The notes below the pieces were generated by a model. The model searched no databases. It saw only the letters and a list, made by a program, of their open reading frames with translations, and was not told the DNA's origin. Both the position numbers and the translations under genes were made by a program. Positions 1,127 to 54,829 of a DNA stretch of 64,000 bases are shown one piece after another (within the stretch, counting starts at the first letter, position 1; each line of letters starts with the position of its first letter). This stretch comes from Patescibacteria group bacterium (GTDB lineage Bacteria > Patescibacteriota > Minisyncoccia > Phycocordibacterales > JAKFXT01): the NCBI GenBank assembly GCA_021731245.1, contig JAKFXT010000008.1:1045-65044 (forward strand), given 5' to 3'.

Positions 1127-1155
1127 TTGACTTTATACCCTATTTATGCTATACT
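1127..1155 (+). promoter_or_regulatory. sigma70-like promoter TTGACT-17nt-TATACT upstream of GC-rich ORF
   Basis: read directly: TTGACT at 1127-1132, 17 nt spacer, TATACT at 1150-1155; GGGAGA RBS before ATG 1208. Confidence 0.35.
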
Positions 1156-1207
1156 TGCGGTTAGAAGGCGGATTTTCCGCCCGCACCTTCACACAAGGGA
1201 GATTGCT

Positions 1208-1741
1208 ATGAAAAAAAGGAATTATGCTGTTCTCTCGGCGGCTTTGGTTTTCAACGCCGTACGTATTGGCTTCCCCGGTATTTCCGAAAAAAGGGGAAGT
1301 CCGGTAAGGAACGCTCATTTCCATGGTGCGTCCGCCAATGAGGGGCCTCTGGTCCGTTACAACGGCGAAGTGCTGGAGAATATCCTGGACCAAATCCAGG
1401 CGGTGGCAAAAAGCGATTTTTCCACCGAGGAAGACATCAAGGTCTTGGTTTCGGCTGGTTTGAGCGGAGTCTCCGTTCAGGTCGCGTTGTACCCGTTTTT
1501 GAGTGACGAGCTCGCGAACGACATCATCGTCAGGTACGCCAGCCTTCTCGAGAAGAAGGCGCTGTTCGAAGGCAAAAATCACGGCGACGTGTTTCTGGAG
1601 GCGAACAACTTCCTGGTGGAATCCCTCGGGATTAGCCGGGAGCAAGCATCCGAGTACTTCGGCTTCATCATCGAGCAGATGCTTCCGTATGTGCAAAGGT
1701 TGCAGGGTGGAGTCATCGAGCCGAGGGTTGCTGTCAGCTGA
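1208..1741 (+). CDS. hypothetical protein in a GC-rich, GC3-rich island (177 aa from ATG 1208; ORF-track start 1127 rejected)
   Basis: codon third positions mostly G/C unlike flanking genes; RBS GGGAGA 6 nt upstream of ATG 1208; followed by strong terminator. Confidence 0.5.
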   Translation: MKKRNYAVLSAALVFNAVRIGFPGISEKRGSPVRNAHFHGASANEGPLVRYNGEVLENILDQIQAVAKSDFSTEEDIKVLVSAGLSGVSVQVALYPFLSDELANDIIVRYASLLEKKALFEGKNHGDVFLEANNFLVESLGISREQASEYFGFIIEQMLPYVQRLQGGVIEPRVAVS

Positions 1742-1760
1742 CGGTGACCCGCAAGACAAA

Positions 1761-1790
1761 ACGCCGACCTTCGGGTCGGCGTTTTTTTTA
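1761..1790. terminator. bidirectional rho-independent terminator between GC-rich ORF and ftsZ
   Basis: hairpin gccgacc-ttcg-ggtcggc followed by T8 on + strand and a T-rich run on - strand. Confidence 0.55.
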
Positions 1791-1791
1791 T

Positions 1792-2988
1792 TTACTTTTT
1801 ATTCCTTCGGAGGAATGCAGGCACTGCACCCCAATCATCATTGTCTTCGTCCGGTAGTGGCTTTGTATTTTTTTGTTCAACCGGAATTGATTTTACTTCC
1901 ACTTTGACTTCTTCTTTTGGAGAATCTTTTTCTTTTGATGTAAAAATACTACTCATTATTTTTTTCTCTTCCTCAATTGCTTTTTCACGATTACGAATTG
2001 GAAATAGTGATTCGCGAGTATTGTGGGCTGATGGATCAGGAAAACCTGTAGCAATCACCGTTACTTTGACTTCATTTTTCTTTAGTTTCTCATCGTAAAT
2101 TGTTCCGAAAATAACACGAGCATTTGGATCAATTGATTCGGTTATAACTTTTGCCGCATCTTGTATTTCTAGCATTCCCAAATCATCGCCACCGGAAACT
2201 GCAAAGAGCACCCCTTTTGCATTATGTATTGAAATATCGAGAAGTGGAGAATTCACGGCGGCCTTTGCTGCCTCAACTGCTCTGTTTTCGCCTGATGCCA
2301 TACCTATACCCATAAGAGCAGAGCCTGCATTTTCCATAACAGAACGAATATCAGCAAAGTCCACATTGATGATTCCAGGTGTAGTAATCAAATCGGAGAT
2401 TCCTTCCACTGCTTGGCGCAAGACATCATCGCACATTGCGAAGGCTGTCTTTACAGAAGTGTCTTTGGAGACTGTAGCTAGGATTCTGTCATTAGGAATA
2501 ACAATTAATGCGTCCACTTGTTTACGTAATTCATCGAGCCCTTGTTCAGCCAAACGTGAGCGTTGTGAACCTTCAAAAGAAAATGGTCTTGTAACAACAC
2601 CGACAGTTAGAGCCCCAAGTTCTTTGGCAGCTTGCGCAACAATTGGAGCCGCCCCTGTTCCAGTTCCGCCTCCCATTCCACCTGCTATGAAAACCATATC
2701 AGCTCCTTTTATTGCTTCTTGAATTTCTTCTTTAGTTTCTTCCGCAGCCCTACGTCCAATATCTGGATTCATTCCAGCACCAAGTCCGTGAGTTAAATTT
2801 TTTCCAATATGAATTTTCTTTTTTGCATCAGAATGTTGCAAATCTTGTGCGTCAGTATTAACAGCAATAAAGTCTACTCCTTTAACTCCAGTCTTTATCA
2901 TGTGATTGGTAGCATTTTTTCCTGAGCCACCAACACCAATAACCCTTATACGTGCAAATGTTTCGATTTCTGGAGAAATTTTAGGCAT
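1792..2988 (-). CDS. ftsZ: cell division GTPase FtsZ
   Basis: tubulin signature GGGTGTG, NTD... IAVNTD, T7 loop region; ftsA immediately upstream. Confidence 0.95.
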
Positions 2989-3138
2989 ATTTTCCTTCCG
3001 TGATTAAATCTCATAATAGCAGACGGTTTTACAATTGGGACCTCGACACTATAGGGGATTTTGTGTTGGAATTACATAAAAAACAAGCAAAAAACGACTC
3101 TGTTGAGCCGTTTTTTCTTAAATTCAGATTTCTTATTT

Positions 3139-4362: not shown

Positions 4363-4749
4363 TTAAACTCCCATTTTTCTCCGAACTGCTGCCTCCTTTA
4401 TGTCCATTGTAACGCTATGAGAGTAACCTTTCAAATGAAACAAACCGTGGATAAATAGAAATGCCACCAGATTTGAAAATTTACGCCCAAATTTCTTCTC
4501 TTCCGCTTTTATTGTTTTAAGGTCAAGGAAAATTTCCCCACTCGTTTTTGATAATGAAAAGCTCAAAACGTTCGTAGAATAATTTTTATTTCTGTAATCT
4601 TTATTTAATTTTTTAGATAGATTCGATGTAGCAAAAACTAATGAAAGTTTGTATTTTTTACCCAAAACCTCGTTCTTTATTAAAAGGAAATTAATCTTCG
4701 GTTTTTTGTACCGAGTAGTATTTGTTATAGAGAATAGACTCTCTCTCAT
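4363..4749 (-). CDS. ybeY: rRNA maturation endoribonuclease YbeY-like
   Basis: C-terminal HGLFHLKGYSH matches YbeY HxxxHxxGxxH zinc motif; ~128 aa. Confidence 0.5.
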   Translation of the reverse strand: MRESLFSITNTTRYKKPKINFLLIKNEVLGKKYKLSLVFATSNLSKKLNKDYRNKNYSTNVLSFSLSKTSGEIFLDLKTIKAEEKKFGRKFSNLVAFLFIHGLFHLKGYSHSVTMDIKEAAVRRKMGV

Positions 4750-4761
4750 ATGGCAGTCTCT

Positions 4762-5031
4762 TTAGCGGCGACCGCGTCTCTTAACTTCTATTACCTTGCC
4801 CATTTTTATAGCTTCTTCATAGACAGCTTTTTTAGATAATCGAGTTAGAGCCTTCTTCTTTCTAACGTAGTGGCTCTTAGTGCGTTCATTGTAGCGAATA
4901 CTGCGGACACGATTTAAAACACCTGATCCTTGCACTCTTTTGGTGAAGCGGCGAATAAGGTTCGTTGCGTTTTCGTTGGCGTTTTTTACTACCTCTACAT
5001 TTACTGAAGTCATGGGGAAAAAGATTAACAC
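4762..5031 (-). CDS. rpsU: 30S ribosomal protein S21 (true start possibly internal ATG at 5013)
   Basis: IRRFTKRVQGSGVLNRVRSIRYNERTKSHYVRKKK matches S21 consensus (RRFKR...GVL.E.R...YEKP...RKR). Confidence 0.6.
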   Translation of the reverse strand: MLIFFPMTSVNVEVVKNANENATNLIRRFTKRVQGSGVLNRVRSIRYNERTKSHYVRKKKALTRLSKKAVYEEAIKMGKVIEVKRRGRR

Positions 5032-6888: not shown

Positions 6889-6929
6889 GAGAAAATAAAT
6901 TTTGGATTAAATATTTTAATTATTTTTTA

Positions 6930-7030
6930 TCCGCCCTCAAACTGCACACATAATTTTCTGTTTAAAATTTGCTCCGCTCGGCGCGTCCGCCTTCGCAAGG
7001 CAGTTTGAGGGCGGATGGGGGTATTAGATG
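6930..7030 (+). repeat. structured intergenic element, family copy A (outer 16-bp stem tccgccctcaaactgc/gcagtttgagggcgga around core CACACATAATTTTCTGTTTAAAATTTGCTCCGCTCGG...CGCAAGG)
   Basis: read directly; homologous copies at ~10338, ~19316, ~26657 and on - strand at ~37083. Confidence 0.5.
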
Positions 7031-8838: not shown

Positions 8839-9063
8839 TTGTATTCGTGGAGGGCCCCTTTAAATTTAAGACACTAATGACTTAAATTTTAGAGAAGTTT
8901 ACTTTCCGCGATTGGCTAATAATCAATTCCTTAAAACAAAAAAGCTCATGGAGCTTTTCATTAAATTAGCACAATATTTGGGAAATGACAAACCCCGCTA
9001 AGAGCGGGGGTCTGGCCGGCACACAGTCGAGCTGTGCGCCGGCCAGATTTTGCCGGGCTTTTA

Positions 9064-9244
9064 TCATTCAGGATTTATTCTTCTTATTACCTGGACGTGG
9101 CGGCTTGGGCCGCTTTGCCCGCTTTTTACTGCTTTCTTCTTGGACGATTTCTTTTTACCTGACGCTTTTCTACTTCTTTTTTTCGCCGCCGCCGGCGCCG
9201 ATGGTGGAACCGCGGAAGCCGGTTTTCGCTTTTTTCTTCGCCAT
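9064..9244 (-). CDS. Lys/Ala/Gly-rich basic small ORF, GC-rich, apparently frameshifted at an A7 run
   Basis: AAGGAG RBS 7 nt before ATG 9244 gives MAKKKAKTGFRGSTIGAGGGEKKK-stop; +1 frame continues KASGKKKSSKKKAVKSG... to 9064. Confidence 0.3.
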
Positions 9245-9433
9245 ATCAATCTCCTTAGAGGTGGTTGCGAAATAGCATCAAGACCGAAATGGTCCAAAAG
9301 ATGAACTGATGCCATTTAAAATTCTATACCCGTTTTAATTTTATGTAAATTATTTTCTGTGTTTAAAATAAAAAAACCAACCAATCGCGAAGATTGAAGT
9401 CGGTATGTTTCTGAAAGAACTTTAGAGACTTCG

Positions 9434-10312: not shown

Positions 10313-10337
10313 AGGTTTTTAATAAAAAAGTTTTTTT

Positions 10338-10428
10338 GTTTGCGTTTGAATTACACGTATAATTTTCTGCTGAAAATTTACTCTGCTCGGCTCGCCAGCT
10401 TGTGCAAGGTAATACAAATGCAAACGTG
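10338..10428 (+). repeat. structured intergenic element, family copy B
   Basis: CACGTATAATTTTCTGCTGAAAATTTACTCTGCTCGGCTCGCC...TGCAAGG ~80% identical to copy A over ~58 nt; own outer stem ttgcgtttgaat/atacaaatgcaa. Confidence 0.45.
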
Positions 10429-10430
10429 GA

Positions 10431-10727
10431 GTGTTAAGATACAATACAAATATGAGTTGGCTGTTTAATTACATACACAGATTACAGCAGTTACCTTTGG
10501 ATGAGAAAAAAAGGAAAGCTCGTGTAATTGCGGGCGTACTAACTTTTATTGTTTTTATTTTTTGGCTTTCAACTTTGGCCCTTTCCAACGATAGGAGTGT
10601 CACAAGTGGAGTAAATATAGATATAACTCCATTAAAAAACATAAAATCTGCAACAGGTGACATTGTAAACAGCTTAACTAATTTGAAAAATAGTTTTAAT
10701 AAAATGGGGACTACAACTCTGGAGTAG
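10431..10727 (+). CDS. small hypothetical membrane protein (likely starts at ATG 10452)
   Basis: one predicted TM helix; two hairpins follow the stop. Confidence 0.3.
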   Translation: MLRYNTNMSWLFNYIHRLQQLPLDEKKRKARVIAGVLTFIVFIFWLSTLALSNDRSVTSGVNIDITPLKNIKSATGDIVNSLTNLKNSFNKMGTTTLE

Positions 10728-13872: not shown

Positions 13873-13876
13873 ATCT

Positions 13877-43222: not shown

Positions 43223-43304
43223 TATAGAAGGCAACAGGTCGAGCCGGTTCCGCATCACGGAACCGGCTTTTCATTTTTCATACTTATAATTTATACTTGA
43301 CTCC

Positions 43305-44567
43305 ATGCTTGATATTAAGTTTATTCGCGAAAATAAAGATTTAGTTGATTTGGCCGCCAAGAAAAAATTAATTAAGTTTGATGTTTCCAAGTTGCTCGCG
43401 GTGGATGAAAGACGCCGAGAGACTTTGCAATTGGTAGAAAGTAAGCGTGCGGAACAAAATAATACTGCTGGAGCTGTTGCTATAGAAAAAGATATTAATA
43501 AAAGAGGGCAATTAATAGCTGAATCAAAGCTTGTAAAAGAAGAATTACAGAAAGAAGAAGAAAATCTCAAAGAAATAATGAAGGAGTGGCAATCTTTGAT
43601 GCTTCAAGTTCCTAACATTCCCGATATGTCTGTCCCAGATGGAATGAGTGATGCCGATAATAAAGAAATAAAAGTTTGGGGAGAAAAAACAAAATTTGAA
43701 TTCGAGGCGAAGGGGCACACTGATTTAATGCTCTTGCACGATATGATTGATTTAGAACGTGGGGTGAAGGTATCTGGTTTCAGAGGATATTTTTTGAAAA
43801 ATGATGGAGCTCTTTTATCTTTTGCTATTTGGCAATATGCCCAGAGATTTTTTTTGAGTAAAGGATTTTCACCAATAATCTCTCCTTCTTTGATTAGAAG
43901 GGAAGTTCTTATGGGTAGTGGATATTTGCCACAAGGTGAAGAAGATTTGTATAAAACACAAGATGGAGAATATTTGGCGGGAACTGCAGAAGTTGGAATG
44001 ATGGGTTATCACATGGATGAGATTTTAAAAAAAGAAGAATTACCAATAAAGTTTCTAGGTTTTTCTCCGTGTTTCAGACGTGAAGCGGGAGCACATGGTA
44101 AAGATACTAAAGGACTTATTCGAGTGCATGAATTTTATAAATGGGAGCAAGTTATTTTGTGTGAAGCAACGCATGAGGAGAGTGTGAAATATCATGAGTG
44201 GCTAAATAGAAATACAGAAGAATTTATAGAATCTTTAGGCCTTCCATATCACACAGTTATAAATTGTGGAGGGGACTTGGGTCTTGGACAGGTTAAGAAA
44301 TATGATATTGAACTTTGGGTTCCAGGAGAGCAGAAATATAGAGAAATAAGTTCCGCCTCATATTTTCATGATTTTCAGACGCGTCGCCTTAATATTCGTT
44401 ACAAAGACTCTGATGGCACAATGCGTTTTGCGCACTCATTAAATAGCACAGCCATTCCCACTCCTAGAATTCTAGTTTCAATTGTTGAAAATAATCAGCA
44501 AGCAGATGGCAGTATAAAAATTCCTGAAGCCCTTGTGCCGTATTTGGGTAAGGATACAATAAAATAG
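43305..44567 (+). CDS. serS: seryl-tRNA synthetase
   Basis: N-terminal coiled-coil tRNA-binding arm, class II motif 2 FRREAGAHGKDTKGLIRVHEF, motif 3 region. Confidence 0.9.
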   Translation: MLDIKFIRENKDLVDLAAKKKLIKFDVSKLLAVDERRRETLQLVESKRAEQNNTAGAVAIEKDINKRGQLIAESKLVKEELQKEEENLKEIMKEWQSLMLQVPNIPDMSVPDGMSDADNKEIKVWGEKTKFEFEAKGHTDLMLLHDMIDLERGVKVSGFRGYFLKNDGALLSFAIWQYAQRFFLSKGFSPIISPSLIRREVLMGSGYLPQGEEDLYKTQDGEYLAGTAEVGMMGYHMDEILKKEELPIKFLGFSPCFRREAGAHGKDTKGLIRVHEFYKWEQVILCEATHEESVKYHEWLNRNTEEFIESLGLPYHTVINCGGDLGLGQVKKYDIELWVPGEQKYREISSASYFHDFQTRRLNIRYKDSDGTMRFAHSLNSTAIPTPRILVSIVENNQQADGSIKIPEALVPYLGKDTIK

Positions 44568-45398
44568 ATGTTTTCAAGCAAAGGGGTTTTATCCTCTCCG
44601 CAGGCACAAAAGAAAAAAAGAATAAACCGTATTAAGGGCACACTTACGTTTATTTTTATTATTTTAGGTATTAGTTCTGGTCTATACAGTGCTCCAAGGT
44701 ATAAGGAGGTCACAATTTATAATATTTCAATATCAGGAAATGAGGTAATAGAAAAAAATACTATTGAGAATATTGTTTCGGAAAAGCTCTCTGGCAATCA
44801 ATATCTATTTTTCCCTAATAGAAACATTTTTCTCTACCCAAAAACATCTATCATTGATTCAATAAAAAATATAAGCCCCTATATTTTAAGCGCCAATGTT
44901 TCCTTTGGAAATTTCAATAGTATTAATGTGGAAGTAATAGAAAGGAAACCCCACTCTCTATATTGTGGAGCAGAATATAAAAAGGAAGATGGTGTTAGTT
45001 GTTATTTCTTAGATGACAAAGGTTTTATTTTTGATGAAGCTCCTCAATTTTCGGGTAATACTTTTGTTAGATACTTTGGCACAACCACAGAGCCATATAT
45101 TGGCAACACTTACTCAAACACTATTTTATTCCAAACACTCTCTCGTTTTATAGATAATTTGAAAGAAAAAGGATTAGATGTGGTTTCTGTGCGCATTATT
45201 TCACCTGATGAGATTTTATTTTATCTAGATACTGGAAGTAAATTGATTATTTCTGAAAAAACAGACTATAACAAAGTCATTACTTATATTGCAGACATAA
45301 TGACAAGTGCTGATTTTAAAGGAAAAGATGAAAACGGGAAATTAAATGTTTCTTATGTAGATTTTCGTTTCGGTAACAAAATATTCTACAAAAAATAA
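44568..45398 (+). CDS. FtsQ/DivIB-like POTRA-domain membrane protein (tentative)
   Basis: N-terminal TM then V.I.ISGNEVIEKNTIENIV...INVEVIERKPH pattern resembling FtsQ POTRA; not adjacent to ftsA/Z. Confidence 0.35.
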   Translation: MFSSKGVLSSPQAQKKKRINRIKGTLTFIFIILGISSGLYSAPRYKEVTIYNISISGNEVIEKNTIENIVSEKLSGNQYLFFPNRNIFLYPKTSIIDSIKNISPYILSANVSFGNFNSINVEVIERKPHSLYCGAEYKKEDGVSCYFLDDKGFIFDEAPQFSGNTFVRYFGTTTEPYIGNTYSNTILFQTLSRFIDNLKEKGLDVVSVRIISPDEILFYLDTGSKLIISEKTDYNKVITYIADIMTSADFKGKDENGKLNVSYVDFRFGNKIFYKK

Positions 45399-45416
45399 AA
45401 CAAGCGGAAGTCTACA

Positions 45417-45710
45417 TCAACTTCCGCTTTTCCTCAAAAGATTAAAAAGATTATAGAAACATTCGTATATAGCGATTTCGCTTGAGGCGCCTACTCCAAA
45501 GCATTTTTCAGGGTGGAATATTTGGGCAACTATAATTCTCCTTTTTTGCTTGTTAATCGAGAATTCCTGTGTAGATATGTAGACAAGGGTTGTCTGTCTC
45601 GATCTCAGTGGTTCAGCGGATCCCGACCTGATCACAGTTCCTTTTGGAACAGGTATGACCCCCTCGTACTCAAAAGCTTCCTTCAAGATTTCGTTCATTG
45701 TCTCTCCCAA
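45417..45710 (-). CDS. hypothetical protein
   Basis: ORF only; bidirectional hairpin terminator at 45399-45416 (aagcggaagt...acttccgctt). Confidence 0.25.
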   Translation of the reverse strand: MGETMNEILKEAFEYEGVIPVPKGTVIRSGSAEPLRSRQTTLVYISTQEFSINKQKRRIIVAQIFHPEKCFGVGASSEIAIYECFYNLFNLLRKSGS

Positions 45711-45774
45711 GGTACAGTTTCTTCTTTATACAATCACAAAGCATTATTTCTATCAAATTTAGCTTTGTGTTAAT

Positions 45775-46734
45775 GTGCATTTTGTAATGAGTAATTTTTG
45801 GGAAAAGTTGAATAAGCCATTTTTTGTTTTAGCTCCGCTTGCTGATGTTACGGATGCGGCCTTTCGTCGTGTCATTGCAAAGTATGGAAAGCCGGATGTC
45901 CTCTGGACCGAATTCGTTTCCGCGGATGGGCTCATGAGTCCGGGGCGTGAAGTTTTGCTAAATGATTTGAAATATACAGAAGGGGAGCGTCCGATTGTTG
46001 CACAACTTTTTTCAGGACACCCAGAGAAAATGTTTGGCGCGGCCAAGCTCTGTAAAGAATTAGGATTTGATGCAATTGATATAAATATGGGTTGTCCTGA
46101 TAAATCCATAGAAAAACAATGTGCGGGGGCGGCTTTAATAAAAAACCCAGAGTTAGCCAAAGAAATAATTCGTGCCGCTAAGAGTGGCGCGGAAGGACTT
46201 CCTATTTCCGTTAAAACTCGTGTGGGTTACAACAAAGATGAAATATATACTTGGATTCGCTCTCTTCTTGAAGAAGATTTGGCAGTACTAACAATTCATG
46301 CGAGAACCAGAAAAGAAATGTCTCTTGTTCCTGCGCGATGGGAAGATGTCGCAAGAGTTGTGAAATTACGAGATGAAATGAAAAAGAAAACTTTGATAAT
46401 TGGAAATGGGGATGTAAAAAATTTAGATGATACACGCGAAAAAGCAAAAACAAGTGGAGCCGATGGAATAATGCTAGGGCGGGCTATTTTTGGTAACCCA
46501 TGGTTATTTTCTGAAAAAGTGCCGGATATAAAAGAAAAATTATCTGTAATGGTGGAACATACAAAACTTTTTGAAGAATTGTTGGGGGGTATAAAAAGTT
46601 TTGCCATTATGAAAAAACATTACAAAGCCTATGTAAACGGTTTTGATGGAGCTAAAGAATTACGTATGAAATTAATGGATTGTAATAATGCCACTGAAAT
46701 AGAAACTATTGTAAATGAATTTTTAAAAGGGTAG
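45775..46734 (+). CDS. dus: tRNA-dihydrouridine synthase
   Basis: TIM-barrel Dus motifs LAPLADVTD, DINMGCPDK (catalytic Cys), HARTR. Confidence 0.85.
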   Translation: MHFVMSNFWEKLNKPFFVLAPLADVTDAAFRRVIAKYGKPDVLWTEFVSADGLMSPGREVLLNDLKYTEGERPIVAQLFSGHPEKMFGAAKLCKELGFDAIDINMGCPDKSIEKQCAGAALIKNPELAKEIIRAAKSGAEGLPISVKTRVGYNKDEIYTWIRSLLEEDLAVLTIHARTRKEMSLVPARWEDVARVVKLRDEMKKKTLIIGNGDVKNLDDTREKAKTSGADGIMLGRAIFGNPWLFSEKVPDIKEKLSVMVEHTKLFEELLGGIKSFAIMKKHYKAYVNGFDGAKELRMKLMDCNNATEIETIVNEFLKG

Positions 46735-46778
46735 TCTGAAGTAAATTTGTTCCCAAGGGAGGTCTCAGTGGCTTATGG

Positions 46779-47091
46779 TTTCGTGTGTTCCCGTTGCGGA
46801 AGTGTCGAGGGTGTGCACGGATTTGAGCCTGATGAGGATGGCTCAAAACGCTTGAGTGCATATCGCTCCAATCTCAACTCCTGTCCTGGCTTCAAGTACA
46901 AGAGAAAAGATGAGAGATTGGCTGTACACGCATACTCATGGTGTCCAACCAGTACTTTTCCTAGAGAAATACTCTTGAGAGATCAGAGACGGCAATATGG
47001 AGGAAAAAAAATTAAACACATCAACCACTCAGTTACAGCAATTTTGTTCTTCAGCGGGGGTCGCAGTGCGGTGGTCGACATCGGCTCGTAG
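46779..47091 (+). CDS. small Cys-rich (CxxC) hypothetical protein in a GC-rich island, GTG start
   Basis: AAGGGAGG RBS before GTG 46779; terminator 47103-47136 (gggcgc...gcgccc + T-run). Confidence 0.35.
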
Positions 47092-47201
47092 TTTTTGGGG
47101 TGGGGCGCTTGAAACATGGCGCCCTTTCTTTTTGTCTTGTAAAACTTTTTTTAAAGTAGTTTAATAGCCTTGACTGAACATTCACAAAGAAAGGACAAAG
47201 G

Positions 47202-47597
47202 ATGTTTCAACAAAGCGATTTCCCCACCCCTCGAATACTGGGTCTTGCGTGGGCAACGGCTTTTTCCATGGACAGAGAAGTCGAAAGAATTATTTCTTCC
47301 TGGAATGACGGTAAAGCCAAGATTTCGTTCATGCAGTTGGTGAACTCTAAGCCTTTTGGCCCCCTTGCTTTTGATGCCATGCTTGAATCTCTGAACCCGG
47401 ACGTTACCGCTACACTGCGAAACTTAGTCAAAAAAGATTTGAACAAGAAACTCTGGGTCGTGTATTGCAAACTAAAAGCAGAAAAAGGTCTACGTAGGCC
47501 ACCAACCTTCAATCCATTGACCTTTCTCCACGCCTGTACTTTGGACCCAGCCATTTTTTCTTATCAAGCTGAAGAGTATTGCGTGCAGGAAGTTTGA
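47202..47597 (+). CDS. hypothetical protein in a GC-enriched island
   Basis: ORF with AAGGA RBS; terminator 47598-47632 (agtgcgcc...ggcgcact + TTTTGTTT). Confidence 0.35.
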   Translation: MFQQSDFPTPRILGLAWATAFSMDREVERIISSWNDGKAKISFMQLVNSKPFGPLAFDAMLESLNPDVTATLRNLVKKDLNKKLWVVYCKLKAEKGLRRPPTFNPLTFLHACTLDPAIFSYQAEEYCVQEV

Positions 47598-47660
47598 AGT
47601 GCGCCCCGACACCAAGGGCGCACTTTTTGTTTGGGGGATTTTTTCAGATATACTAGTGCA

Positions 47661-48698
47661 ATGTCGGAAGTTGCTTTATATAGAAAATACAGACCAAAGA
47701 CTTTTGCTGATGTCTTGGATCAAGAAGAAGTAGTTAAGGTATTGGAGTCTGCCATAAAAAAAGATAATATTTCTCACGCCTACATTTTTGCGGGAAGCCG
47801 TGGTACTGGTAAAACATCTGTTGCTAGAATATTTGCAAGAGAAATCGGCACAACCGATGATGATATTTATGAAATAGACGCGGCTTCAAATCGAGGAATA
47901 GACGAAATTCGTGTTATTCGGGATGCGGTACACACTTCACCGTTTTCTTCAAAATATAAAGTATATATTTTAGACGAAGCGCACATGCTTACTAAAGATG
48001 CCTGGAATGCACTTTTGAAAACTTTAGAAGAGCCACCAGCTTATGTGATTTTTATATTAGCTACGACCGAGATAGAAAAGGTGCCAGAAACTGTACTTTC
48101 TCGATGCCAAACATTTTCTTTTAAAAAACCAACCCACGAAACTTTAAAAAAGGTGATTACGGATATAGCTAAAGCTGAAGGTTTTGCATTAGATAAATCT
48201 GCATCAGAACTCATTTCTTTTTTGGGAGATGGATCTTTTCGTGACGCACAAGTGATTTTACAAAAGATAATTACTGCACAAAGCGGTAAAAATATCTCAA
48301 TTGAAGATGTGGAAGCAGTAAGTGGGGCGCCAAAAGGAAAACTCTTGGAGGATGTTATTTTAGGTATTGAAGAAAAGAACGGTGGTAAGTCACTTTTAGC
48401 GCTTGAAAAAGCCAAGGAACAAAACATCGACATGAAATTATTTCTCCGGTTACTTCTTGAAAGGGTGCGCGTAGTACTTTTACTTCGTTTTGCCAAAGAA
48501 ATGGAGAAAAAGCTTTCGGAAAATTATACAGAAGATGATTTTAAATTATTGAAAGATTTAGCTAATAAAAAAGGTGGGGTAATAAATTCTAAAGTATTGG
48601 ACGAACTACTTCGAGCGTATGAAGAAATAAACTTCGCCGCTATCAAAGAACTCCCACTCCAGCTTGCCCTCATGCGAATAATAGGTGAAAATAAGTAA
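47661..48698 (+). CDS. dnaX: DNA polymerase III subunit gamma/tau (short)
   Basis: YRPKTF, AAA+ Walker A GSRGTGKTS, Walker B ILDEAHML, sensor SRC. Confidence 0.85.
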   Translation: MSEVALYRKYRPKTFADVLDQEEVVKVLESAIKKDNISHAYIFAGSRGTGKTSVARIFAREIGTTDDDIYEIDAASNRGIDEIRVIRDAVHTSPFSSKYKVYILDEAHMLTKDAWNALLKTLEEPPAYVIFILATTEIEKVPETVLSRCQTFSFKKPTHETLKKVITDIAKAEGFALDKSASELISFLGDGSFRDAQVILQKIITAQSGKNISIEDVEAVSGAPKGKLLEDVILGIEEKNGGKSLLALEKAKEQNIDMKLFLRLLLERVRVVLLLRFAKEMEKKLSENYTEDDFKLLKDLANKKGGVINSKVLDELLRAYEEINFAAIKELPLQLALMRIIGENK

Positions 48699-48703
48699 AT
48701 ATA

Positions 48704-48733
48704 TATTCTGATATTCTGCAGAATATCAGAATA
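48704..48733. repeat. 30-bp perfect palindrome tattctgatattctgcagaatatcagaata, copy 1 (between dnaX stop and ArsR start)
   Basis: read directly; identical copy at 49005-49034. Confidence 0.7.
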
Positions 48734-48746
48734 GATAAATGAGTTT

Positions 48747-49013
48747 ATGAAAACCAGTAAGCAACTAGAAAGATATTTCAAAGGTGCAGCAAATCATTGG
48801 CGCATTTCCATATTGTTATTAGTCGACAAACAAGAGGGCGTTACAGTAGAGGGTATTGCGGATAATTTGAATGGAAATTTAAAAACAATTTCTCAACACA
48901 CAAGGTCTTTGGTTCATGCTGGGTTACTTAATAAAAAATATAAAGGTAACAGAGTTAATCACACTCTATCTCCTTATGGAAAAATGTTTTTACGCTTCAT
49001 AAAACTATTCTGA
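48747..49013 (+). CDS. ArsR/SmtB-family winged-helix transcriptional regulator
   Basis: HTH region RISILLLVDKQEGVTVEGIADNLNGNLKTISQHTRSLVHAGLL matches ArsR-type wHTH; 88 aa. Confidence 0.6.
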   Translation: MKTSKQLERYFKGAANHWRISILLLVDKQEGVTVEGIADNLNGNLKTISQHTRSLVHAGLLNKKYKGNRVNHTLSPYGKMFLRFIKLF

Positions 49014-49034
49014 TATTCTGCAGAATATCAGAAT
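49005..49034. repeat. 30-bp perfect palindrome, copy 2 (overlaps ArsR stop; followed by TAGTTTTAT, terminator-like)
   Basis: identical to 48704-48733. Confidence 0.7.
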
Positions 49035-49124
49035 AGTTTTATGGCAATTGGGAAGACAAGAGATTGAGGAAAAGAGGTTTTTGTTGTAAATTAGTTAAGT
49101 TTTGCAAAGTTTCGTGTTTAGAGC

Positions 49125-49195
49125 TGGGGGATCGTCTAATGGTAGGACAGCGGCCTTTGAAGCCGTTAATTGGGGTTCGAGTCCCTGTCCCCCAG
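49125..49195 (+). tRNA. tRNA-Gln (anticodon TTG), U1-A72 first pair
   Basis: acceptor TGGGGGA/TCCCCCA, D-arm GTCTAATGGTAGGAC, anticodon stem-loop GCGGC-CTTTGAA-GCCGT, T-arm GGGGTTCGAGTCCCT. Confidence 0.8.
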
Positions 49196-49222
49196 CTTTG
49201 AACAGGAAAATAAAATAATTTT

Positions 49223-49474
49223 ATGACTATTAAAACTATTGCCGGAGGTACAGTGCATAAAATGCCGGAAGATTTAAAGAAGGTAATTATTGCGGCACCT
49301 GTTGCGCGAAAATTATGGGACGATATAACCCCACTTGCACGCAATGAGTGGATTTGTTGGGTGACCTCCGGCAAAAAAGCAGAAACTAGAGGTATTCGAA
49401 TTCAAAAAGGAATCTCGAGGATGAAAGGTGGAATGAGGAGACCTTGTTGTTGGGAAGGATGTTCCCATCGTTGA
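49223..49474 (+). CDS. YdeI/OmpD-associated-family-like small protein (tentative)
   Basis: ARNEWICWVTSGKKAETRGIRIQKGISRMKGG resembles the conserved C-terminal segment of that family; terminator hairpin 49510-49540. Confidence 0.35.
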   Translation: MTIKTIAGGTVHKMPEDLKKVIIAAPVARKLWDDITPLARNEWICWVTSGKKAETRGIRIQKGISRMKGGMRRPCCWEGCSHR

Positions 49475-49579
49475 GGAGCTTAGGCGACGAAATACTGAGG
49501 TCAGCAGATCCGAATGTGCTGATATTTTTTAGTAAAACCTTCATGGAGTTTTAATGTAGAGGTTTGTTATAATGCGTTC

Positions 49580-50083
49580 ATGAAAAATCCTGTCACCATT
49601 CTTTTGGTTGTCGCCGTTATTTTTATGCTTGGATATATAGTTAATTTGAAAGTTTCAAATAAGGATTCAGACACTGACAAAACTCCTGTAACGACAAATA
49701 ATAATGGTCCAAAGATAAATCTAAGTAATCAGGGACTTACAAAAGCCCCAGAATACATCTTTAGTCAAAGTAATCTTGAAGAATTGGACCTCTCTTATAA
49801 TTCGATTGGGGGCGCTTTGCAATCTCAGATTAGAAACTTGAAAAAATTGAAAGTTCTAAACTTAAGTAATAATAAATTTACAGGGGTGCCGGCTGAGGTG
49901 GGTCAACTTGTAAATTTAGAAGTATTAAATTTGAGCAAAAATCAAATTACAGGTTTGCCATACGAGCTTGGTAATTTGAAAAATCTTAAACTTCTCGACT
50001 TATCTCAGAATCAATATTCAGAAATAGATTTGGCAAAAATAAAAGAAACTTTACCAAAAACAACTATTATTAAAACAAAGTAG
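49580..50083 (+). CDS. leucine-rich repeat protein, N-terminal TM anchor
   Basis: five LxxLxLxxNxI/F repeats (LDLSYNSI, LNLSNNKF, LNLSKNQI, LDLSQNQY). Confidence 0.7.
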   Translation: MKNPVTILLVVAVIFMLGYIVNLKVSNKDSDTDKTPVTTNNNGPKINLSNQGLTKAPEYIFSQSNLEELDLSYNSIGGALQSQIRNLKKLKVLNLSNNKFTGVPAEVGQLVNLEVLNLSKNQITGLPYELGNLKNLKLLDLSQNQYSEIDLAKIKETLPKTTIIKTK

Positions 50084-50109
50084 TCACGAATAGAGAATGG
50101 TCCAAATTT

Positions 50110-50754
50110 GTGAAGCCTCATTTTAAATATTTTCTATATGGTTGCGGAATAATTGCGATTTTTGTTTTGATTATAAATTTGGCTTTTTACTTTAAGACAA
50201 AGTCATTTATATATAAAAACGTTGATGATATCCCTACAACACAAGTAGTAATTATTCCTGGCGCGGCAATACTGAAAAGCGGAGAGCTTTCTCCAATTTT
50301 TAAAGACAGGGTGGATAAAGCTATAGAATTATATAATTTGAAAAAAGTTTCTAAGATTCTGGTTTCGGGTGACAATAGCACTGTAAGTTACAACGAAGTG
50401 AACCCTGTTCGTATATATCTTTTGGAAAGAGGTATACCAGACCAAGATATTTTTCTAGATCATGCTGGGTTTGATACTTATAGTACTATGTATCGCGCCC
50501 GTGACGTTTTTGGCGCCACCTCAACCGTTATTTCGACTCAGGACTTTCATTTGCCAAGAGCTGTATTTATAGGGAAAAGTCTAGGTTTAACAGCTTATGG
50601 TGCCGATGCCGATACGCTCAATATTCTCCCGCGTAATTATGTTCGTGAAGTCTTTGCCAATGTGAAAGCCTTTTTAAATCTATCTTTTGATAGACTACCT
50701 AAATATCTAGGAGAGCCTATTCCTATAACAGGAGATGGCAGAATTTACCCTTAA
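50110..50754 (+). CDS. SanA/YdcF (DUF218) family membrane protein
   Basis: N-terminal TM then VVIIPGAA...ILVSGDN...YNEV pattern typical of DUF218. Confidence 0.55.
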   Translation: MKPHFKYFLYGCGIIAIFVLIINLAFYFKTKSFIYKNVDDIPTTQVVIIPGAAILKSGELSPIFKDRVDKAIELYNLKKVSKILVSGDNSTVSYNEVNPVRIYLLERGIPDQDIFLDHAGFDTYSTMYRARDVFGATSTVISTQDFHLPRAVFIGKSLGLTAYGADADTLNILPRNYVREVFANVKAFLNLSFDRLPKYLGEPIPITGDGRIYP

Positions 50755-50820
50755 TAATTGATTACAAAAACTTTTGAATATGATTAATGTAATAAAAAAC
50801 ATATTTACCCGTCTATATCT

Positions 50821-51345
50821 ATGAAGGCAGATAATGATAAAATGGAGAAAACCTTTCTAAGAGCATATGAAGATTATAGTGATGCCATTTTTCGCTTCTG
50901 CTACTACAAAACCAATGATAGAGAAGTTGCAAAAGATTTGGCACAAGAAACCTTTGTTAAAACCTGGGACTCTATTCGGGCGGGGAAAGCTGTCAACAAT
51001 TTCAAAGTTTTTCTTTATTTTGTGGCGAGAAATACAGTCATTGATTTTTGGCGCAAAAAGAAATCTATTCCAGAAAGTAGATTGGAGGAAGATTTTTTTG
51101 AAACTGTCGCAAGTGGAGAAGACAGTGAGATGGACGCCGAAATTAGTTTACTTATCTTAAATATGAAGAAATTAGAAAATTCTGATCGCGAACTCATCAC
51201 ACTTAGATTTATTGAAGGTTTAGGTATAAAAGAAATAGCCACGATTTTAAATGAAAGAGAAAATACTGTTTCTGTCCGAATGATGAGAGCTGTGGAACGC
51301 CTGAAAAAAATCACAATGGGACCAGATGGTAATAATAAAATTTAA
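50821..51345 (+). CDS. ECF-type RNA polymerase sigma-70 family factor
   Basis: region 2 (FRFCYYKTNDREVAKDLAQETFVKTW) and region 4 HTH (GLGIKEIATILNERENTVSVRMMRAVERL). Confidence 0.8.
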   Translation: MKADNDKMEKTFLRAYEDYSDAIFRFCYYKTNDREVAKDLAQETFVKTWDSIRAGKAVNNFKVFLYFVARNTVIDFWRKKKSIPESRLEEDFFETVASGEDSEMDAEISLLILNMKKLENSDRELITLRFIEGLGIKEIATILNERENTVSVRMMRAVERLKKITMGPDGNNKI

Positions 51346-51349
51346 ATAT

Positions 51350-52753
51350 ATGGAAGAATCATTTGAAAAAAGAATAGAAAAGTTAAAAAGTGTTTCTCAA
51401 AATATTTCCCTTAGAAAAGAGGAGAAGCTTTTGATGCGTGAGAACATTAATAAGTATATGGAAAGTTTCCCTTTGATAGCCAAGTTAGGTGTAATAGAAA
51501 GCCTGATGGCACGTCTTAATAGTTGGAAGCAGGCAATATTAAGCTTCCGATTATTAGCTTTAAAGAAAACCAAAATTATGATAACTGCAATAATAAGTCT
51601 AGTTTTAGCCCTTTCAGGAGGAGTATCATTCGCCGCTCAAGGGTCTGTCCCAGGAGATGCGCTCTACCCGATTAAGGTTAACGTTAATGAAAAGGCCCAA
51701 GTACTTTTGGCAGTTTCGCCAGAAGCCAAGTTAGCTTTGCAAGGGAAGTTAGCTGAATATCGTCTAGAAGAAGCATCTAAATTAGCCGCTGAAGGTAAAT
51801 TAAACGCGGAAAATAAAAAAGAATTAGAAGCTCGTTTCAAGGCCAATGTTAAGGTGTTTACAGAAAATTCCAAAAAACTTTCCGATAATGATAAAAATTT
51901 TAATCCCACAGACTTAAACATTCGCTTTGAGTCACAAATAAAAGCTTATGAAGCGGTGTTGCAAAACATCTTGAATCAATCCGCCTCAACCACAGCGACA
52001 AGTACAACGAATGGTGCCAATCAATTCTTGTTCACTATTAACGATGCCAAAATGAAAATTCAGGAAAATAGAGGACAGTTTGAACTCAAATTAGGTGGAA
52101 CTCTCAGTGTTCTCAATGGCTCTACTACTGCCACAACCACAGTGAAGGTTCACGCAACTAGCACTAAGGAAATGGCCGAAGGAAAACAAAGAGCCGCTGA
52201 AAATGTATTAGCTTCCGCCAAATCTATGTTTGAAAGAGCTGAGGATAAACTAGCCACTACCACAGAAGTTCAAGTTCAAGCTAAACTCGATGAATCAAAT
52301 AGAAATATAGTTGAGGGTAAGACTAAGGTTACTGCTGGGAATTATGCCGGAGCAATAATCAATTTCCAAACAGCCATTAGATTAGCTAATGATGCCAAAG
52401 TTCTCACTATGACTAGTCTTGTTAAGACTCACATAAAGATAGATATAAGAGATGATCATAAAGACAAAAAGGATAAAGATGATGACAAAGATGACAAGCA
52501 TCGTGACAATGATGATAAATACAAAACATCAACCACGACTTATAACAAAGATGGAAAAATCTACTATAGACCAAGCATTGATATAAAAAATATCATTGAT
52601 GTCAAGAAAGTAGAAAATAATAATAACAACAACGATAATGATGATGACGACAATAAAGATGAAAAGAAGCATGTAGAGACTAACGTCAAAATAAATGGGA
52701 ACTCCAATAATGGAGAAGTGAACATTGATGTAAGAGGAAAAATTGGATTATAG
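51350..52753 (+). CDS. putative anti-sigma factor, DUF5667-like extracytoplasmic domain, D/K/N-rich low-complexity C-terminus
   Basis: start ATG 51350 abuts sigma stop; single TM ~aa 85-105; PGDALYPIKVNVNEKAQ motif; strong terminator 52769-52820. Confidence 0.5.
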   Translation: MEESFEKRIEKLKSVSQNISLRKEEKLLMRENINKYMESFPLIAKLGVIESLMARLNSWKQAILSFRLLALKKTKIMITAIISLVLALSGGVSFAAQGSVPGDALYPIKVNVNEKAQVLLAVSPEAKLALQGKLAEYRLEEASKLAAEGKLNAENKKELEARFKANVKVFTENSKKLSDNDKNFNPTDLNIRFESQIKAYEAVLQNILNQSASTTATSTTNGANQFLFTINDAKMKIQENRGQFELKLGGTLSVLNGSTTATTTVKVHATSTKEMAEGKQRAAENVLASAKSMFERAEDKLATTTEVQVQAKLDESNRNIVEGKTKVTAGNYAGAIINFQTAIRLANDAKVLTMTSLVKTHIKIDIRDDHKDKKDKDDDKDDKHRDNDDKYKTSTTTYNKDGKIYYRPSIDIKNIIDVKKVENNNNNNDNDDDDNKDEKKHVETNVKINGNSNNGEVNIDVRGKIGL

Positions 52754-52881
52754 ATTCTGAAAATTAGAAAACCCGCCTAAGGTATAAGGTTAGCCCTTAC
52801 CTTAGGCGGGTTTTCCTTTTATCGATTACTTATGATAAATTTAGTAAGGTATATAAAATTACAAATATTAAATAACACTCA

Positions 52882-54000
52882 ATGAGAAAATACGTATCAG
52901 TTTTTGTCTTAACAATATTTTTAGCCCTTGCTCCTACGGCCCTTGCTCATGAGTCCCGCACATATGAAATAAACGGAAATGAATATGCGTTCACCGTTGG
53001 TTCTTTGGGGGAACCTGTTGTGGTAGACGATAAAAGCGGAGTCGACTTAGGTATTAAACGCTTCGGCGCTGCACTTGAAGGAGCAGAGAAAATTTTGAAG
53101 GTTGAAGTAAAGAGCGGTGATGTCAAAAAAGTTTTTGACTTAGAGACTGTTTGGGGAGAAGTTGGGAAATACAAAACTACATTTTTTATTACAAAGGAGG
53201 ACCCTATCTCATACAGGTTTATAGGAACTATAGATGGTAGAGAAATTGATTTTCTGTTTGAGTGTTCTCCTAAGGGACACCAAATGAATGCAATGGAGGA
53301 AGATAAAACCAGGACTAAATTATCAGAAAATGTTTTCCTAATTTCAAAGAAAGGTTCATTTGGTTGCCCTGCAAAAAAGAGCGATTATCAATTTCCTGTT
53401 TCTACAAAAGATCAGCTTCATTTGAATAACGGTATATTTTTCGCAATCTTTCTAGGTATTGTAGGAACAATTCTTTCCATTTGGGCTATTTTAAGAAATA
53501 GGAATAATGGAAATCAAATGGTGGAGTCTGTGAGTAACAAAAAAATAATTCGTATATTAATCATCGCCCTAATCTTAGGACTTGTCGTTTATGGAGTATT
53601 TTGTCTAAATAGCAGAACTGATAAGAAAGACAAAGTGGAAGTGCCTATGGACCATATGGCTCATCCTATGGTTGAAATAAATCTTTCTAGTCCGATTCCA
53701 AAATTATCTCTGGATGTGGTTAAAGATTCAAAGGATGGATATAACATTCATCTGATTACTCAAAATTATTCCTTTACTCCAGAAAGTGTTGGCGGAAAGA
53801 ATAAGGACAATACTGGACACGCGCATTTGTATGTAAATGGGGTCAAAGTAGCTAGACTTTATAGCTCATGGTTTAACCTTGGGAACAGTTTTTTGAAAGA
53901 AGGAGAGAATCTTATTGAAGTTACTCTTAATGCAAATGACCACAGCGAATGGGTGCAAAAAGGTGAACACATTTCTGCTAAAACAAAAATAATAAAATAG
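52882..54000 (+). CDS. hypothetical secreted/membrane protein (signal peptide, two internal TM helices)
   Basis: signal peptide ...ALA then His at predicted mature N-terminus; no family recognised. Confidence 0.3.
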   Translation: MRKYVSVFVLTIFLALAPTALAHESRTYEINGNEYAFTVGSLGEPVVVDDKSGVDLGIKRFGAALEGAEKILKVEVKSGDVKKVFDLETVWGEVGKYKTTFFITKEDPISYRFIGTIDGREIDFLFECSPKGHQMNAMEEDKTRTKLSENVFLISKKGSFGCPAKKSDYQFPVSTKDQLHLNNGIFFAIFLGIVGTILSIWAILRNRNNGNQMVESVSNKKIIRILIIALILGLVVYGVFCLNSRTDKKDKVEVPMDHMAHPMVEINLSSPIPKLSLDVVKDSKDGYNIHLITQNYSFTPESVGGKNKDNTGHAHLYVNGVKVARLYSSWFNLGNSFLKEGENLIEVTLNANDHSEWVQKGEHISAKTKIIK

Positions 54001-54003
54001 TTA

Positions 54004-54420
54004 ATGAAAAGTATAACTGTAGAAGTAATTGTAGGTGCACCAATAGAAAAGGTATGGAAGATGTGGACTGGTCCGGAGCATATTGTACATTGGTGTCACG
54101 CATCTGATGACTGGGAGTGTCCGAAGGCTGAAAATGATTTGAGAGTGGGAGGAAGATTTTTATCAACTTTTGCCGCTAAAGATAAATCACAATCTTTCGA
54201 TTTAACGGGGACTTATACGGCAGTGGAAGAAAATAAATTGATTGGCTACACCATGGATGGGGATGATGCTAGAAAAGTGGAGATTCATTTTGAAAAAGTT
54301 GATGGGGGAGTAAAAATTACTGAGACTTTTGATATGGAAAATCAAAATTCTGAAGAGCTCCAGCGCTCCGGCTGGCAAGCAATACTGAATAATTTTAAAT
54401 CTTACGTCGAGAGTAATTAG
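54004..54420 (+). CDS. SRPBCC (AHSA1-like) domain protein
   Basis: ITVEVIVGAPIEKVWKMWTGPEHIVHW... pattern typical of Aha1/SRPBCC fold, 138 aa. Confidence 0.55.
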   Translation: MKSITVEVIVGAPIEKVWKMWTGPEHIVHWCHASDDWECPKAENDLRVGGRFLSTFAAKDKSQSFDLTGTYTAVEENKLIGYTMDGDDARKVEIHFEKVDGGVKITETFDMENQNSEELQRSGWQAILNNFKSYVESN

Positions 54421-54444
54421 AGAGTAATTAATTTTAAATAAAAA

Positions 54445-54465
54445 GAAGCCCGCATCGCGGGCTTC
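54445..54465. terminator. hairpin terminator shared by convergent genes
   Basis: gaagcccgc-atc-gcgggcttc; T-run on minus strand immediately after, weaker on plus. Confidence 0.45.
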
Positions 54466-54466
54466 G

Positions 54467-54829
54467 TCAGGCGGCTTTTTTCTCTCCTTTTTGATCTTCA
54501 CGCTCAAATTCTCGTTCCATCTCTTCTTCCATGTCCCGAAGATCTTTGGGACACACAGGGTCGTGTCTCTTTGTCACGAAGAAGTGGGGTTTTTCATTTA
54601 GCTTTTTTTCTACCCAAATCTCGCAGCTATACCACTCTCCAGCGTGGATTCCTTCTCTGCAGTAGGAGCAGTCGTGCCATTGCCAGGCCATTCGACTGAA
54701 GTTTCGAAGCAGACGCAGGTACTCTCGATAGGATTCGTCGTTGTCTGCAAAGAGCTCGCCGAATTCACCGGGATTTGGGTCTAAATGAAGTGGAGTTCCC
54801 GCCACTTCATGCACAATGATTTCTTGCAT
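54467..54829 (-). CDS. Cys-rich hypothetical protein in a GC-rich island
   Basis: GC3-rich; motifs WHDCSYC, WYSCE, DPVCP; acidic tail. Confidence 0.35.
   Translation of the reverse strand: MQEIIVHEVAGTPLHLDPNPGEFGELFADNDESYREYLRLLRNFSRMAWQWHDCSYCREGIHAGEWYSCEIWVEKKLNEKPHFFVTKRHDPVCPKDLRDMEEEMEREFEREDQKGEKKAA

Follow-up and report, generated by a model that had tools for sequence, protein, structure and literature searches.

Ten GC-rich patches (I1 to I10) punctuate a 64,000-nt stretch of an AT-rich Paceibacteria chromosome (contig JAKFXT010000008.1; the whole stretch is called the window below). On balance, we think it probable that these patches make up the chromosome's flexible genes, which turn over quickly and circulate in a Paceibacteria pool by uptake and recombination. 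The islands are small autonomous transcription units (promoter, Shine–Dalgarno (SD) motif, open reading frame (ORF) and hairpin terminator), mostly for envelope or small Cys-rich proteins, and they occupy a limited set of junctions between core genes of an order-wide conserved arrangement. We regard the pattern as ordinary, if unusually dense, flexible-gene content. This reading builds on direct observations of compositional contrast, autonomous signals, synteny, indels and a promoter duplication.

Composition of the islands

A preliminary description of the window had listed the ten patches, and every one of them coincides with a GC peak (0.44–0.58 in 400-nt windows) over a window mean of 38.6% (0.386). 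The islands comprise 15 ORFs, or 16 including x97, which lies in an 11th, weak patch beyond the original list [45417–45698 (−)]. Island ORFs total 7,185 nt (11.2% of the window). With starts corrected for I5 (32029), I9a (GTG at 46768; 46779 is out of frame), I6a (35340) and I3b (18608), the mean island values were 0.49 for GC, 0.52, 0.42 and 0.52 for GC at the first, second and third codon positions (GC1, GC2 and GC3) and 0.27 for Gly, Ala, Arg and Pro (GARP) residues. The corresponding core means were 0.37, 0.47, 0.35, 0.27 and 0.21.

Among 42 core genes, GC3 at synonymous codons (GC3s) was 0.254±0.032 (maximum 0.365) and the codon adaptation index (CAI) was 0.722±0.025 (minimum 0.642). The 15 island ORFs had GC3s values of 0.34–0.69 and CAI values of 0.42–0.60. 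Sliding-window GC, GC3 and CAI compared with the core genes thus identified the codon usage of the islands as atypical, with I2 and I6a being marginal. The claim that most third positions are G or C was correct for about half of the ORFs (I1, I3a, I3b, I4b, I5, I7, I8a and I8b) and incorrect for I2 (GC3 0.39) and for I6a (0.31), which is no compositional outlier. All codon positions and the amino-acid make-up resemble genes from a genome of ~50% GC, a value within the 32–58% range of related Paceibacteria with the same gene order and expression signals.

We detected no similarity among the islands at the protein or DNA level. Nothing therefore joins them into one system, and a single repeated family or a single system was rejected. 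RNA genes were rejected as well: the islands had no Rfam match in a permissive scan (E≤1), and tRNA and Rfam scans explain none of them.

Expression signals and coding character

An SD motif was present at 14 of the 16 ORFs. Promoters matching the consensus at 10 or more of 12 positions were found upstream of eight island units (at 1127, 9349, 18726, 28754, 28165, 38751, 42283 and 42867). There are 24 such sites in 60 kb, eight of which sit just upstream of islands, compared with ~0.3 expected by position. The proposal of a near-consensus promoter before each island therefore held for eight transcription units but not for I6b, I9a and I3a, which have no promoter of their own; I6b comes directly after tRNA-Leu, I9a after dus, and I3a shares an operon with I3b. 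The strong terminators were confirmed: ~12 of the ~14 strongest hairpins (≥9 pairs, ≥6 of them G-C) abut islands, and several island terminators also serve the convergent neighbour. The description of the expression signals as native-style is literally true for I8a, the promoter of which is a 39-nt, 87% identical copy of the resident I8b promoter (repeat family D14).

These signals bear on the possibility that the islands are an artefact, be it a chimeric assembly, contamination or GC-rich non-coding DNA with chance ORFs. Most island ORFs are without homologues and long antisense ORFs occur in I1, I8 and I9b, as an artefact would predict. However, SD motifs, promoters and terminators, a GC1>GC2 periodicity in most island ORFs, ORFs of up to 340 aa and the lack of RNA family matches argue for genuine genes. 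Independent Logan assemblies match window positions 16341–18714 (I3) and 52701–54884 and 53337–55188 (I10) at 100% identity, so that chimeric assembly does not account for the I3 and I10 junctions, and I9a, I7 and I6a occupy the same junctions in the nearest relative described below. Codon-structured conservation, seen both at the I9a N-terminus and in the motif of I7, and the existence of a homologue family for I3b also speak for real genes. We consider an artefact hardly credible.

Island sites in close relatives

The window encodes a conserved core of Paceibacteria [Patescibacteria or candidate phyla radiation (CPR)]. Pfam confirmed a TrxB-like reductase, FtsZ, an S1 protein, an MBL hydrolase, GyrA, ClpB, a CHASE2 cyclase, RelA/SpoT and DprA; the labels FtsA, TopA, SerS, Dus and HolB rest on sequence similarity or inspection by eye only. 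FtsZ relatives in species-representative genomes were at most 71% identical and belonged to Adler-, Taylor-, Zambryski- and Kaiserbacteria and similar groups, whose GC contents are 32–58%. The nearest relative was L083, a Hainich groundwater contig of 37.5% GC (TopA 90%, core DNA 73–82% identical). It is collinear with window positions 29218–49196, the stretch on which the comparison of the I5–I9 sites rests; L085 served as the outgroup. Core fourfold-site identity between the window and L083 was 0.38–0.63 (synonymous divergence, Ks, ~1).

Absent from their sites in relatives were I1, I5, I6b, I8a and I9b. We assign them to a putative class B, islands whose gain or loss would postdate the divergence from the nearest relative; I2 probably also belongs to this class. 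The I5 unit [~545 nt; 31932–32473 (+); ORF 32029–32403 with SD, 124 aa; terminator 32431–32460; GC3 0.59] and I9b [47160–47630 (+); ORF 47202–47597 with SD, 131 aa; own hairpin and T-run; GC3 0.46] are missing in L083 as clean promoter–ORF–terminator indels with conserved flanks. Both form singleton clusters, I5 being also present in a Logan contig; an AlphaFold2 model of I5 made without alignment had a pLDDT of 56, a confidence insufficient for searching by fold. L083 likewise lacks I6b and I8a. I6b [35333–35665 (−), 110 aa; lipobox ISGC; GC3 0.45] begins 34 nt past tRNA-Leu and is the upstream ORF of I6 [35137–35665 (−)]. The I8a cassette [42283–42856 (+)] consists of promoter 42283–42311 (11/12 positions), ORF 42359–42811 (150 aa; signal peptide and Gly/Asp-rich linker; GC3 0.64) and terminator 42833–42856.

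I1 and I2 occupy sites that could be followed in more distant genomes. In 74 of 80 relatives, ftsZ and trxB are neighbours, usually ~100 nt apart; in the window the gap between them is 757 nt of 53% GC and holds the I1 cassette [1127–1785 (+)], with promoter 1127–1155 (TTGACT-17-TGnTATACT), an SD motif, ORF 1208–1741 (177 aa; GC 0.54, GC3 0.68; N-terminal signal-like segment) and the bidirectional terminator 1758–1785 common to ftsZ. About a dozen further lineages have other inserts of 450–1,700 nt at this junction. No I1 homologue was found in the local loci, Pfam, NCBIfam, PHROGs, PADLOC or viral contigs. I2 [8993–9349 (−)], with promoter 9349–9321, ORF 9064–9315 (83 aa) and a weak hairpin at 9009–8993, encodes a very basic protein, lacks an SD motif and is possibly leaderless; it is the weakest of the named islands (GC 0.48, GC3 0.39). 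The S1-protein/MBL junction in which it lies measures 237–1,894 nt across 35 relatives.

Repeated piecemeal acquisition, as originally proposed, is thus consistent with several islands gained or lost as units (I1, I5, I6b, I8a and I9b), but not with I3, I7, I6a and I9a, which are in place in relatives. The latter (I3a/b, I7, I6a and I9a) form our class A, apparent residents of their sites since the common ancestor with these relatives; I8b and x97 are probably of this class, too. Class A proteins diverge far faster than flanking genes, with promoter and terminator conserved. For the I7 cassette [38751–39137 (+); promoter 38751–38780; ORF 38815–39087, 90 aa, CxCG...C motif; terminator 39116–39137], promoter, start codon, Cys motif and terminator are conserved in L083 and the remaining coding sequence has diverged. 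A small Cys-rich ORF in the same orientation is found at this topA–relA junction in four genomes (17–33% identical), with M1, C13, C15, G16 and C24 invariant.

The I6a ORF [35158–35340 (−), 60 aa], which is followed by the bidirectional terminator 35137–35158, has a 52% identical orthologue in L083 (15323–15550). I9a [46768–47125 (+); ORF 46768–47091 with GTG start, 107 aa, CxxC; terminator 47102–47125] starts 34 nt past dus. Its DNA is ~76–82% identical in L083, about as in the flanking genes, and its protein 56% identical; in the N-terminal CxxC region the changes are of the synonymous type and conservation is codon-structured. The L083 copy [4506–4845 (−)] has a 1-nt insertion that gives a stop after codon 25, with the frame resuming downstream, and could be a pseudogene, a sequencing error or a case of recoding. 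The I8b cassette [42867–43269 (+); promoter 42867–42895, 11/12 positions; ORF 42938–43222, 94 aa, ~3 transmembrane segments, GC3 0.72; terminator 43241–43269] corresponds in L083 to a homologous promoter and 5′ untranslated region (5′UTR) before a non-alignable 111-aa membrane protein (GC3 0.64). At the site of x97 [45402–45698 (−); ORF 45417–45698, 93 aa, GC3 0.43; terminator 45429–45402], L083 has a 98-aa ORF in the same place and orientation (GC3 0.47; 29% identical, E 0.07).

The I3 operon

The I3 operon [16829–18726 (−)] has its promoter at 18726–18698 and its terminator at 16855–16829. It encodes I3b [17586–18608 (−); 340 aa, membrane-anchored, SPFH/Band-7-like; GC3 0.51] and I3a [16884–17570 (−); 228 aa, a membrane protein; GC3 0.54]. 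A full HMMER scan of 1.84 billion representatives gave 185 relatives of I3b, the best non-self match being 37% identical. The three nearest, L082, L163 and L164, have the window's order of gyrA, methyltransferase, SBP, three to six T4SS-pilin genes, a small membrane ORF and the SPFH gene. L082 is collinear with window positions 13342–18671, with flanking proteins 46–69% and I3b 34–37% identical. SPFH identity was ~35–44% and the partner gene unalignable in every pair. The window and L082 were the best-scoring pair for the SPFH protein and for the flanks alike, i.e. the similarity ranking of I3b follows the flanks. With synteny kept and this ranking matching the flanks, I3 is, as judged from these alignments, an old, vertically compatible and fast-evolving operon. 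It is a compositional outlier in the window (GC3 0.5 vs 0.27), slightly so in L082 and not in relatives of 48–53% GC. In the four members with inspected contigs, the I3b family is confined to Paceibacteria-type synteny.

Like SPFH/Band-7 (HflK/C-like) scaffolds, I3b has an N-terminal membrane segment followed by an SPFH-like domain, with weak matches to Band_7 (21.3 bits; Pfam cutoff 23.6) and HflC (E 2e-4, far below the cutoff); its orthologues P0002 and P0003 carry PF01145. Unlike that family, it scores below the Pfam and NCBIfam thresholds and belongs to a small Paceibacteria-specific clade tied to the T4SS-pilin cluster.

In window positions 13318–18726 and in L082, L163 and L164, the conserved cluster consists of gyrA, a SAM-methyltransferase gene, an SBP-like gene and three to six T4SS_pilin (PF18895) genes, followed by the convergent operon for a hyper-variable membrane protein and the SPFH-like protein. 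Because the pairing is constant, it suggests a joint function of the SPFH protein and the pilin system.

Protein content and homology searches

Inspection of the translations, on which all localisation and type calls are based, identified signal-peptide-like N-termini in I1 and I8a, lipoboxes in I4a and I6b, membrane proteins in I3a, I3b and I8b, and small Cys-rich proteins in I7, I9a and I10. Several island proteins are singletons in the public protein collection, their sources being one NCBI contig of 70,949 bp and the Logan assemblies SRR10388252 and SRR10388253. Two cassettes form I4. I4b [28154–28754 (−); promoter 28754–28727; ORF 28259–28648, 129 aa, GC3 0.66; terminator 28184–28154, 14 bp] is a singleton 90% cluster. 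I4a [26940–28165 (−); promoter 28165–28137; ORF 26982–28001, 339 aa, lipobox LSGC, GC3 0.49; terminator 26969–26940] lies directly upstream of tRNA-Tyr and, searched alone, matched only itself among 5.8 billion protein clusters. I10 [54445–54829 (−); ORF 54467–54829, 120 aa, GC3 0.49], also a singleton cluster, encodes a Cys-rich protein with an acidic tail and shares its terminator (54465–54445) with the convergent gene 54004–54420.

I10 is located in a 6.8-kb variable region (window 49196–55983) of mostly AT-rich genes that adjoins tRNA-Gln. L083 has ~1 kb instead (1719–2783), with two small ORFs (130 and 76 aa) that by eye are a putative toxin–antitoxin pair.

Searches of the island ORFs against Pfam, NCBIfam, PHROGs and PADLOC gave nothing beyond the sub-threshold SPFH/HflC signal in I3b and a weak partial PHROGs match of I10 (E 2e-4) to a family of unknown function. 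Specifically, PADLOC defence models matched none of the 16 proteins, and tblastn of the islands against 50,697 phage records and 72,556 plasmids was negative. IMG/VR viral contigs contained no close relative of the five proteins tested, and the PDB held no meaningful match for island proteins. No integrase or transposase gene was recognized among the island ORFs by Pfam, NCBIfam or PHROGs, and no border direct repeats were found save the I8a/I8b promoter duplication. The absence of integrase, insertion sequence or attC-like sites noted in the preliminary description was thus corroborated for the island ORFs and ends, the remaining ORFs of the window having been scanned in part.

Phage morons are autonomous promoter–ORF–terminator units with a composition unlike their surroundings, inserted between conserved genes. 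The islands have the same build, and two of them (I4 and I6b) adjoin tRNA genes, so that remnants of phage morons, plasmid genes or defence or anti-defence genes had to be weighed. However, the context here is not a prophage, and the phage, plasmid and defence searches just described yielded neither homology nor an integrase, only the single weak I10 match. Such an origin is highly improbable. Integron cassettes are alike in being single ORFan cassettes, promoter-dependent or self-expressed, that accumulate at defined sites. Unlike integrons, the islands have no IntI (within the scanned ORFs named above), no attC or attI and no repeat or palindrome family common to cassette ends, and they are scattered rather than arrayed.

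Origin and persistence of the islands

The preliminary description had suggested a higher-GC host as donor. We therefore weighed the possibility that the islands are about ten independent recent imports from a higher-GC organism, for example the host of an episymbiont, refitted with native signals. Such imports would account for the atypical composition at all codon positions, the clean cassette indels relative to L083 and the I8a promoter duplication. For class A, however, they are already refuted by the orthologues of I3, I7, I6a and I9a in matching positions in relatives. Orthologues at the same loci, the finding that had been named in advance as evidence against acquisition, exist for about half of the islands, and the I3b ranking matches the flanks. 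We found no island homologue outside Paceibacteria, the valid deep searches being those with I3b and I4a. Neither a donor lineage nor a conflict with the species tree emerged: homologues came only from Paceibacteria contigs, no non-CPR sequence contained one, the I3b family stays in Paceibacteria-type synteny and I4a is a singleton. There is no support for a host donor, and we consider recent imports of this kind very unlikely.

A different explanation is endogenous heterogeneity: vertically inherited genes would be kept GC-rich by a gene-specific force, such as gene conversion biased towards GC at hot spots of recombination or, in genes with low expression, weaker selection for codons that end in A or T, and absences would be lineage-specific deletions. 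Consistent with this, class A orthologues are GC3-rich in both the window and L083 despite a Ks of ~1. Likewise, the SPFH operon tends to top the local GC3 range in AT-rich genomes and not in a 53% GC genome, and its similarity ranking matches the flanks. On the other hand, L085 lacks I9a and I9b and most of the 74 relatives are empty at the I1 site, which makes gains a more parsimonious explanation than repeated losses. The shift also extends beyond synonymous sites, to GC2 and amino-acid composition. The intergenic DNA of the window is AT-rich (GC 0.367), indicating that the mutational equilibrium is not GC-rich, and in related loci ORFan outliers are AT-rich as often as GC-rich. Endogenous heterogeneity appears unlikely to us, albeit well within reason.

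We favour exchange within the Paceibacteria gene pool, whose members span 32–58% GC and share signals and gene order. Genes from this pool would enter by DNA uptake, for which DprA and pilin genes are encoded in the window, and would be integrated by homologous or homology-facilitated illegitimate recombination, with conserved flanks or resident promoters as anchors. The duplicated promoter of I8a may be the single direct trace of such an integration. Up to 13% of Patescibacteria genome length has been attributed to horizontal gene transfer (HGT), mostly between Patescibacteria, and competence and pili have been proposed as the uptake route (Gios et al. 2025, mSystems, PMC12455944).

Several points weigh against this reading. 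None of the class B proteins yielded a donor or a close homologue, and exchange among Paceibacteria therefore rests on composition, shared signals and the literature. The comparison with close relatives bears on the sites of I1, I3 and I5–I9, and valid deep homology searches cover I3b and I4a only. Moreover, class A orthologues hold a GC3 of 0.42–0.65 in AT-rich genomes at a Ks of ~1, and I3 is still at 0.5 after much deeper divergence. A simple sequence of import and subsequent amelioration fits this persistence poorly; slow or partial amelioration, repeated import of alleles and biased gene conversion are possible causes.

The junctions themselves may be fixed 'expression sockets', in which a conserved promoter/5′UTR and terminator are retained and the coding sequence is repeatedly replaced or hyper-diversified. 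Examples would be I7 in four genomes, I8b compared with the 111-aa protein of L083, and the unalignable partner of the SPFH gene. We regard this as a speculative and rather unlikely extension.

Frequency of the pattern in related loci

Across 109 related loci, GC deviations above 0.08 are essentially never seen in conserved genes. Of the ORFans in the AT-rich loci, 9–14% were GC-rich outliers (0.2–0.35 per 10 kb), with a similar share of AT-rich outliers. The survey was scored by total GC, since a GC3 version could be inflated by spurious ORFs, and it showed both tails and no directional rule. The density of GC-rich outliers per 10 kb was ~1.6–1.9 in the window, 0.9 in L083 and 1.4–2.2 in a few loci. 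By this measure, the window is a dense example of a recurrent pattern. Junctions such as ftsZ–trxB and S1–MBL are reused across the order with differing content.

In L014, a Zambryskibacteria relative of 35% GC, a GC-rich (0.49–0.57) gene for a 482-aa secreted protein with a PEPEPE-type linker lies just after trxB (12634–14082), i.e. the same kind of island in another lineage.

Genomic islets and flexible islands, additive or replacement, are known from bacterial pangenomes. The islands resemble them in their atypical composition, in their fixed junctions between syntenic core genes (some by tRNAs), in content that varies between close relatives, in their enrichment for envelope proteins and ORFans, and in that integrase-free exchange via homologous flanks is possible. 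They differ in being very small (0.3–1.9 kb, one or two genes) and very dense (~11% of 64 kb), in being GC-richer and not AT-richer than the core, and in that about half are positionally conserved and hyper-divergent. The HGT regions of groundwater Patescibacteria (PMC12455944) come from the same phylum and habitat type. That study detects ~10-kb islands and single genes with identifiable partners, whereas no partners are detectable for the present islets, most of which its methods would miss.

Other elements in the window

A ~99-nt three-stem element occurs at 6926–7024 (+), 10335–10433 (+) and 37095–37194 (−), and in L083 at 18662–18761 (−). It has a 14-bp closing stem, two hairpins and the conserved single-stranded motifs CACAYATA, GCTCYGCTCG and GCAAGG. 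A covariance model from four copies (R1) found 29 more (E<1e-4) in ~24 Paceibacteria loci, often right after a stop codon and at the same variable junctions (ftsZ–trxB in L069 and L045; after topA in L130). Across the 33 copies, 90.4% of cells pair and compensatory changes occur in 30 of 32 pairs; the covariation score is 0.71, compared with 0.19 for shuffled and 0.09–0.15 for slid controls. No Rfam family matched at E≤1. The element may be a new non-coding RNA or 3′UTR motif; alternatively, it may be a structured repeat of the ERIC/Correia type.

The gap between the convergent genes parB and relA [36885–37206 (−)] contains a perfect sigma-70-type promoter, TTGACA-16-TGnTATAAT (37083–37056), and ~140 nt past it a strong terminator (36919–36892). 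This segment has a fold z-score of only −2.2 and corresponds to no ORF or Rfam family. It is missing in L083 and L085, where the gap is 28–37 nt.

Two copies (92%) of the 30-nt perfect palindrome TATTCTGATATTCTGCAGAATATCAGAATA, at 48704–48741 and 49006–49043, flank an 88-aa ORF (48747–49013). The L083 orthologue also has palindrome copies around it, and the palindromes look like operator sites of a small regulator.

The window contains eight tRNA genes [19062–19782 (four), 26797, 32800, 35699 and 49125], which were the sole tRNA or Rfam matches. Short conserved modules lie by several of them: 19017–19051/26751–26785, 18934–18978/19596–19640 and 19535–19589/19675–19729 (families D1, D5 and D16). 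These modules, which include the hairpin AAAATCCCAAG..CTTGGGATTT, may be shared tRNA promoter, terminator or processing signals.

Implications

As the general phenomenon has already been described for Patescibacteria, the practical value of our findings is modest. The junctions ftsZ–trxB, S1–MBL, topA–relA, dprA–serS and dus–holB lend themselves to following gene turnover in metagenomes. CPR/Patescibacteria genomes are tiny and thought to be streamlined, and yet ~11% of this stretch consists of orphan, foreign-looking small genes. Their envelope and Cys-rich products are of the kinds expected to mediate contact with hosts and phages. Since half of the islands are old and hyper-divergent, caution is advised in reading GC islands in AT-rich symbionts as host-derived HGT. 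If the junctions did prove to be expression sockets, this would mean an integrase-free, competence-driven swapping of cassettes for surface and small Cys-rich proteins in Paceibacteria, and the persistent ~50% GC would mark a cassette pool shared across the lineage.

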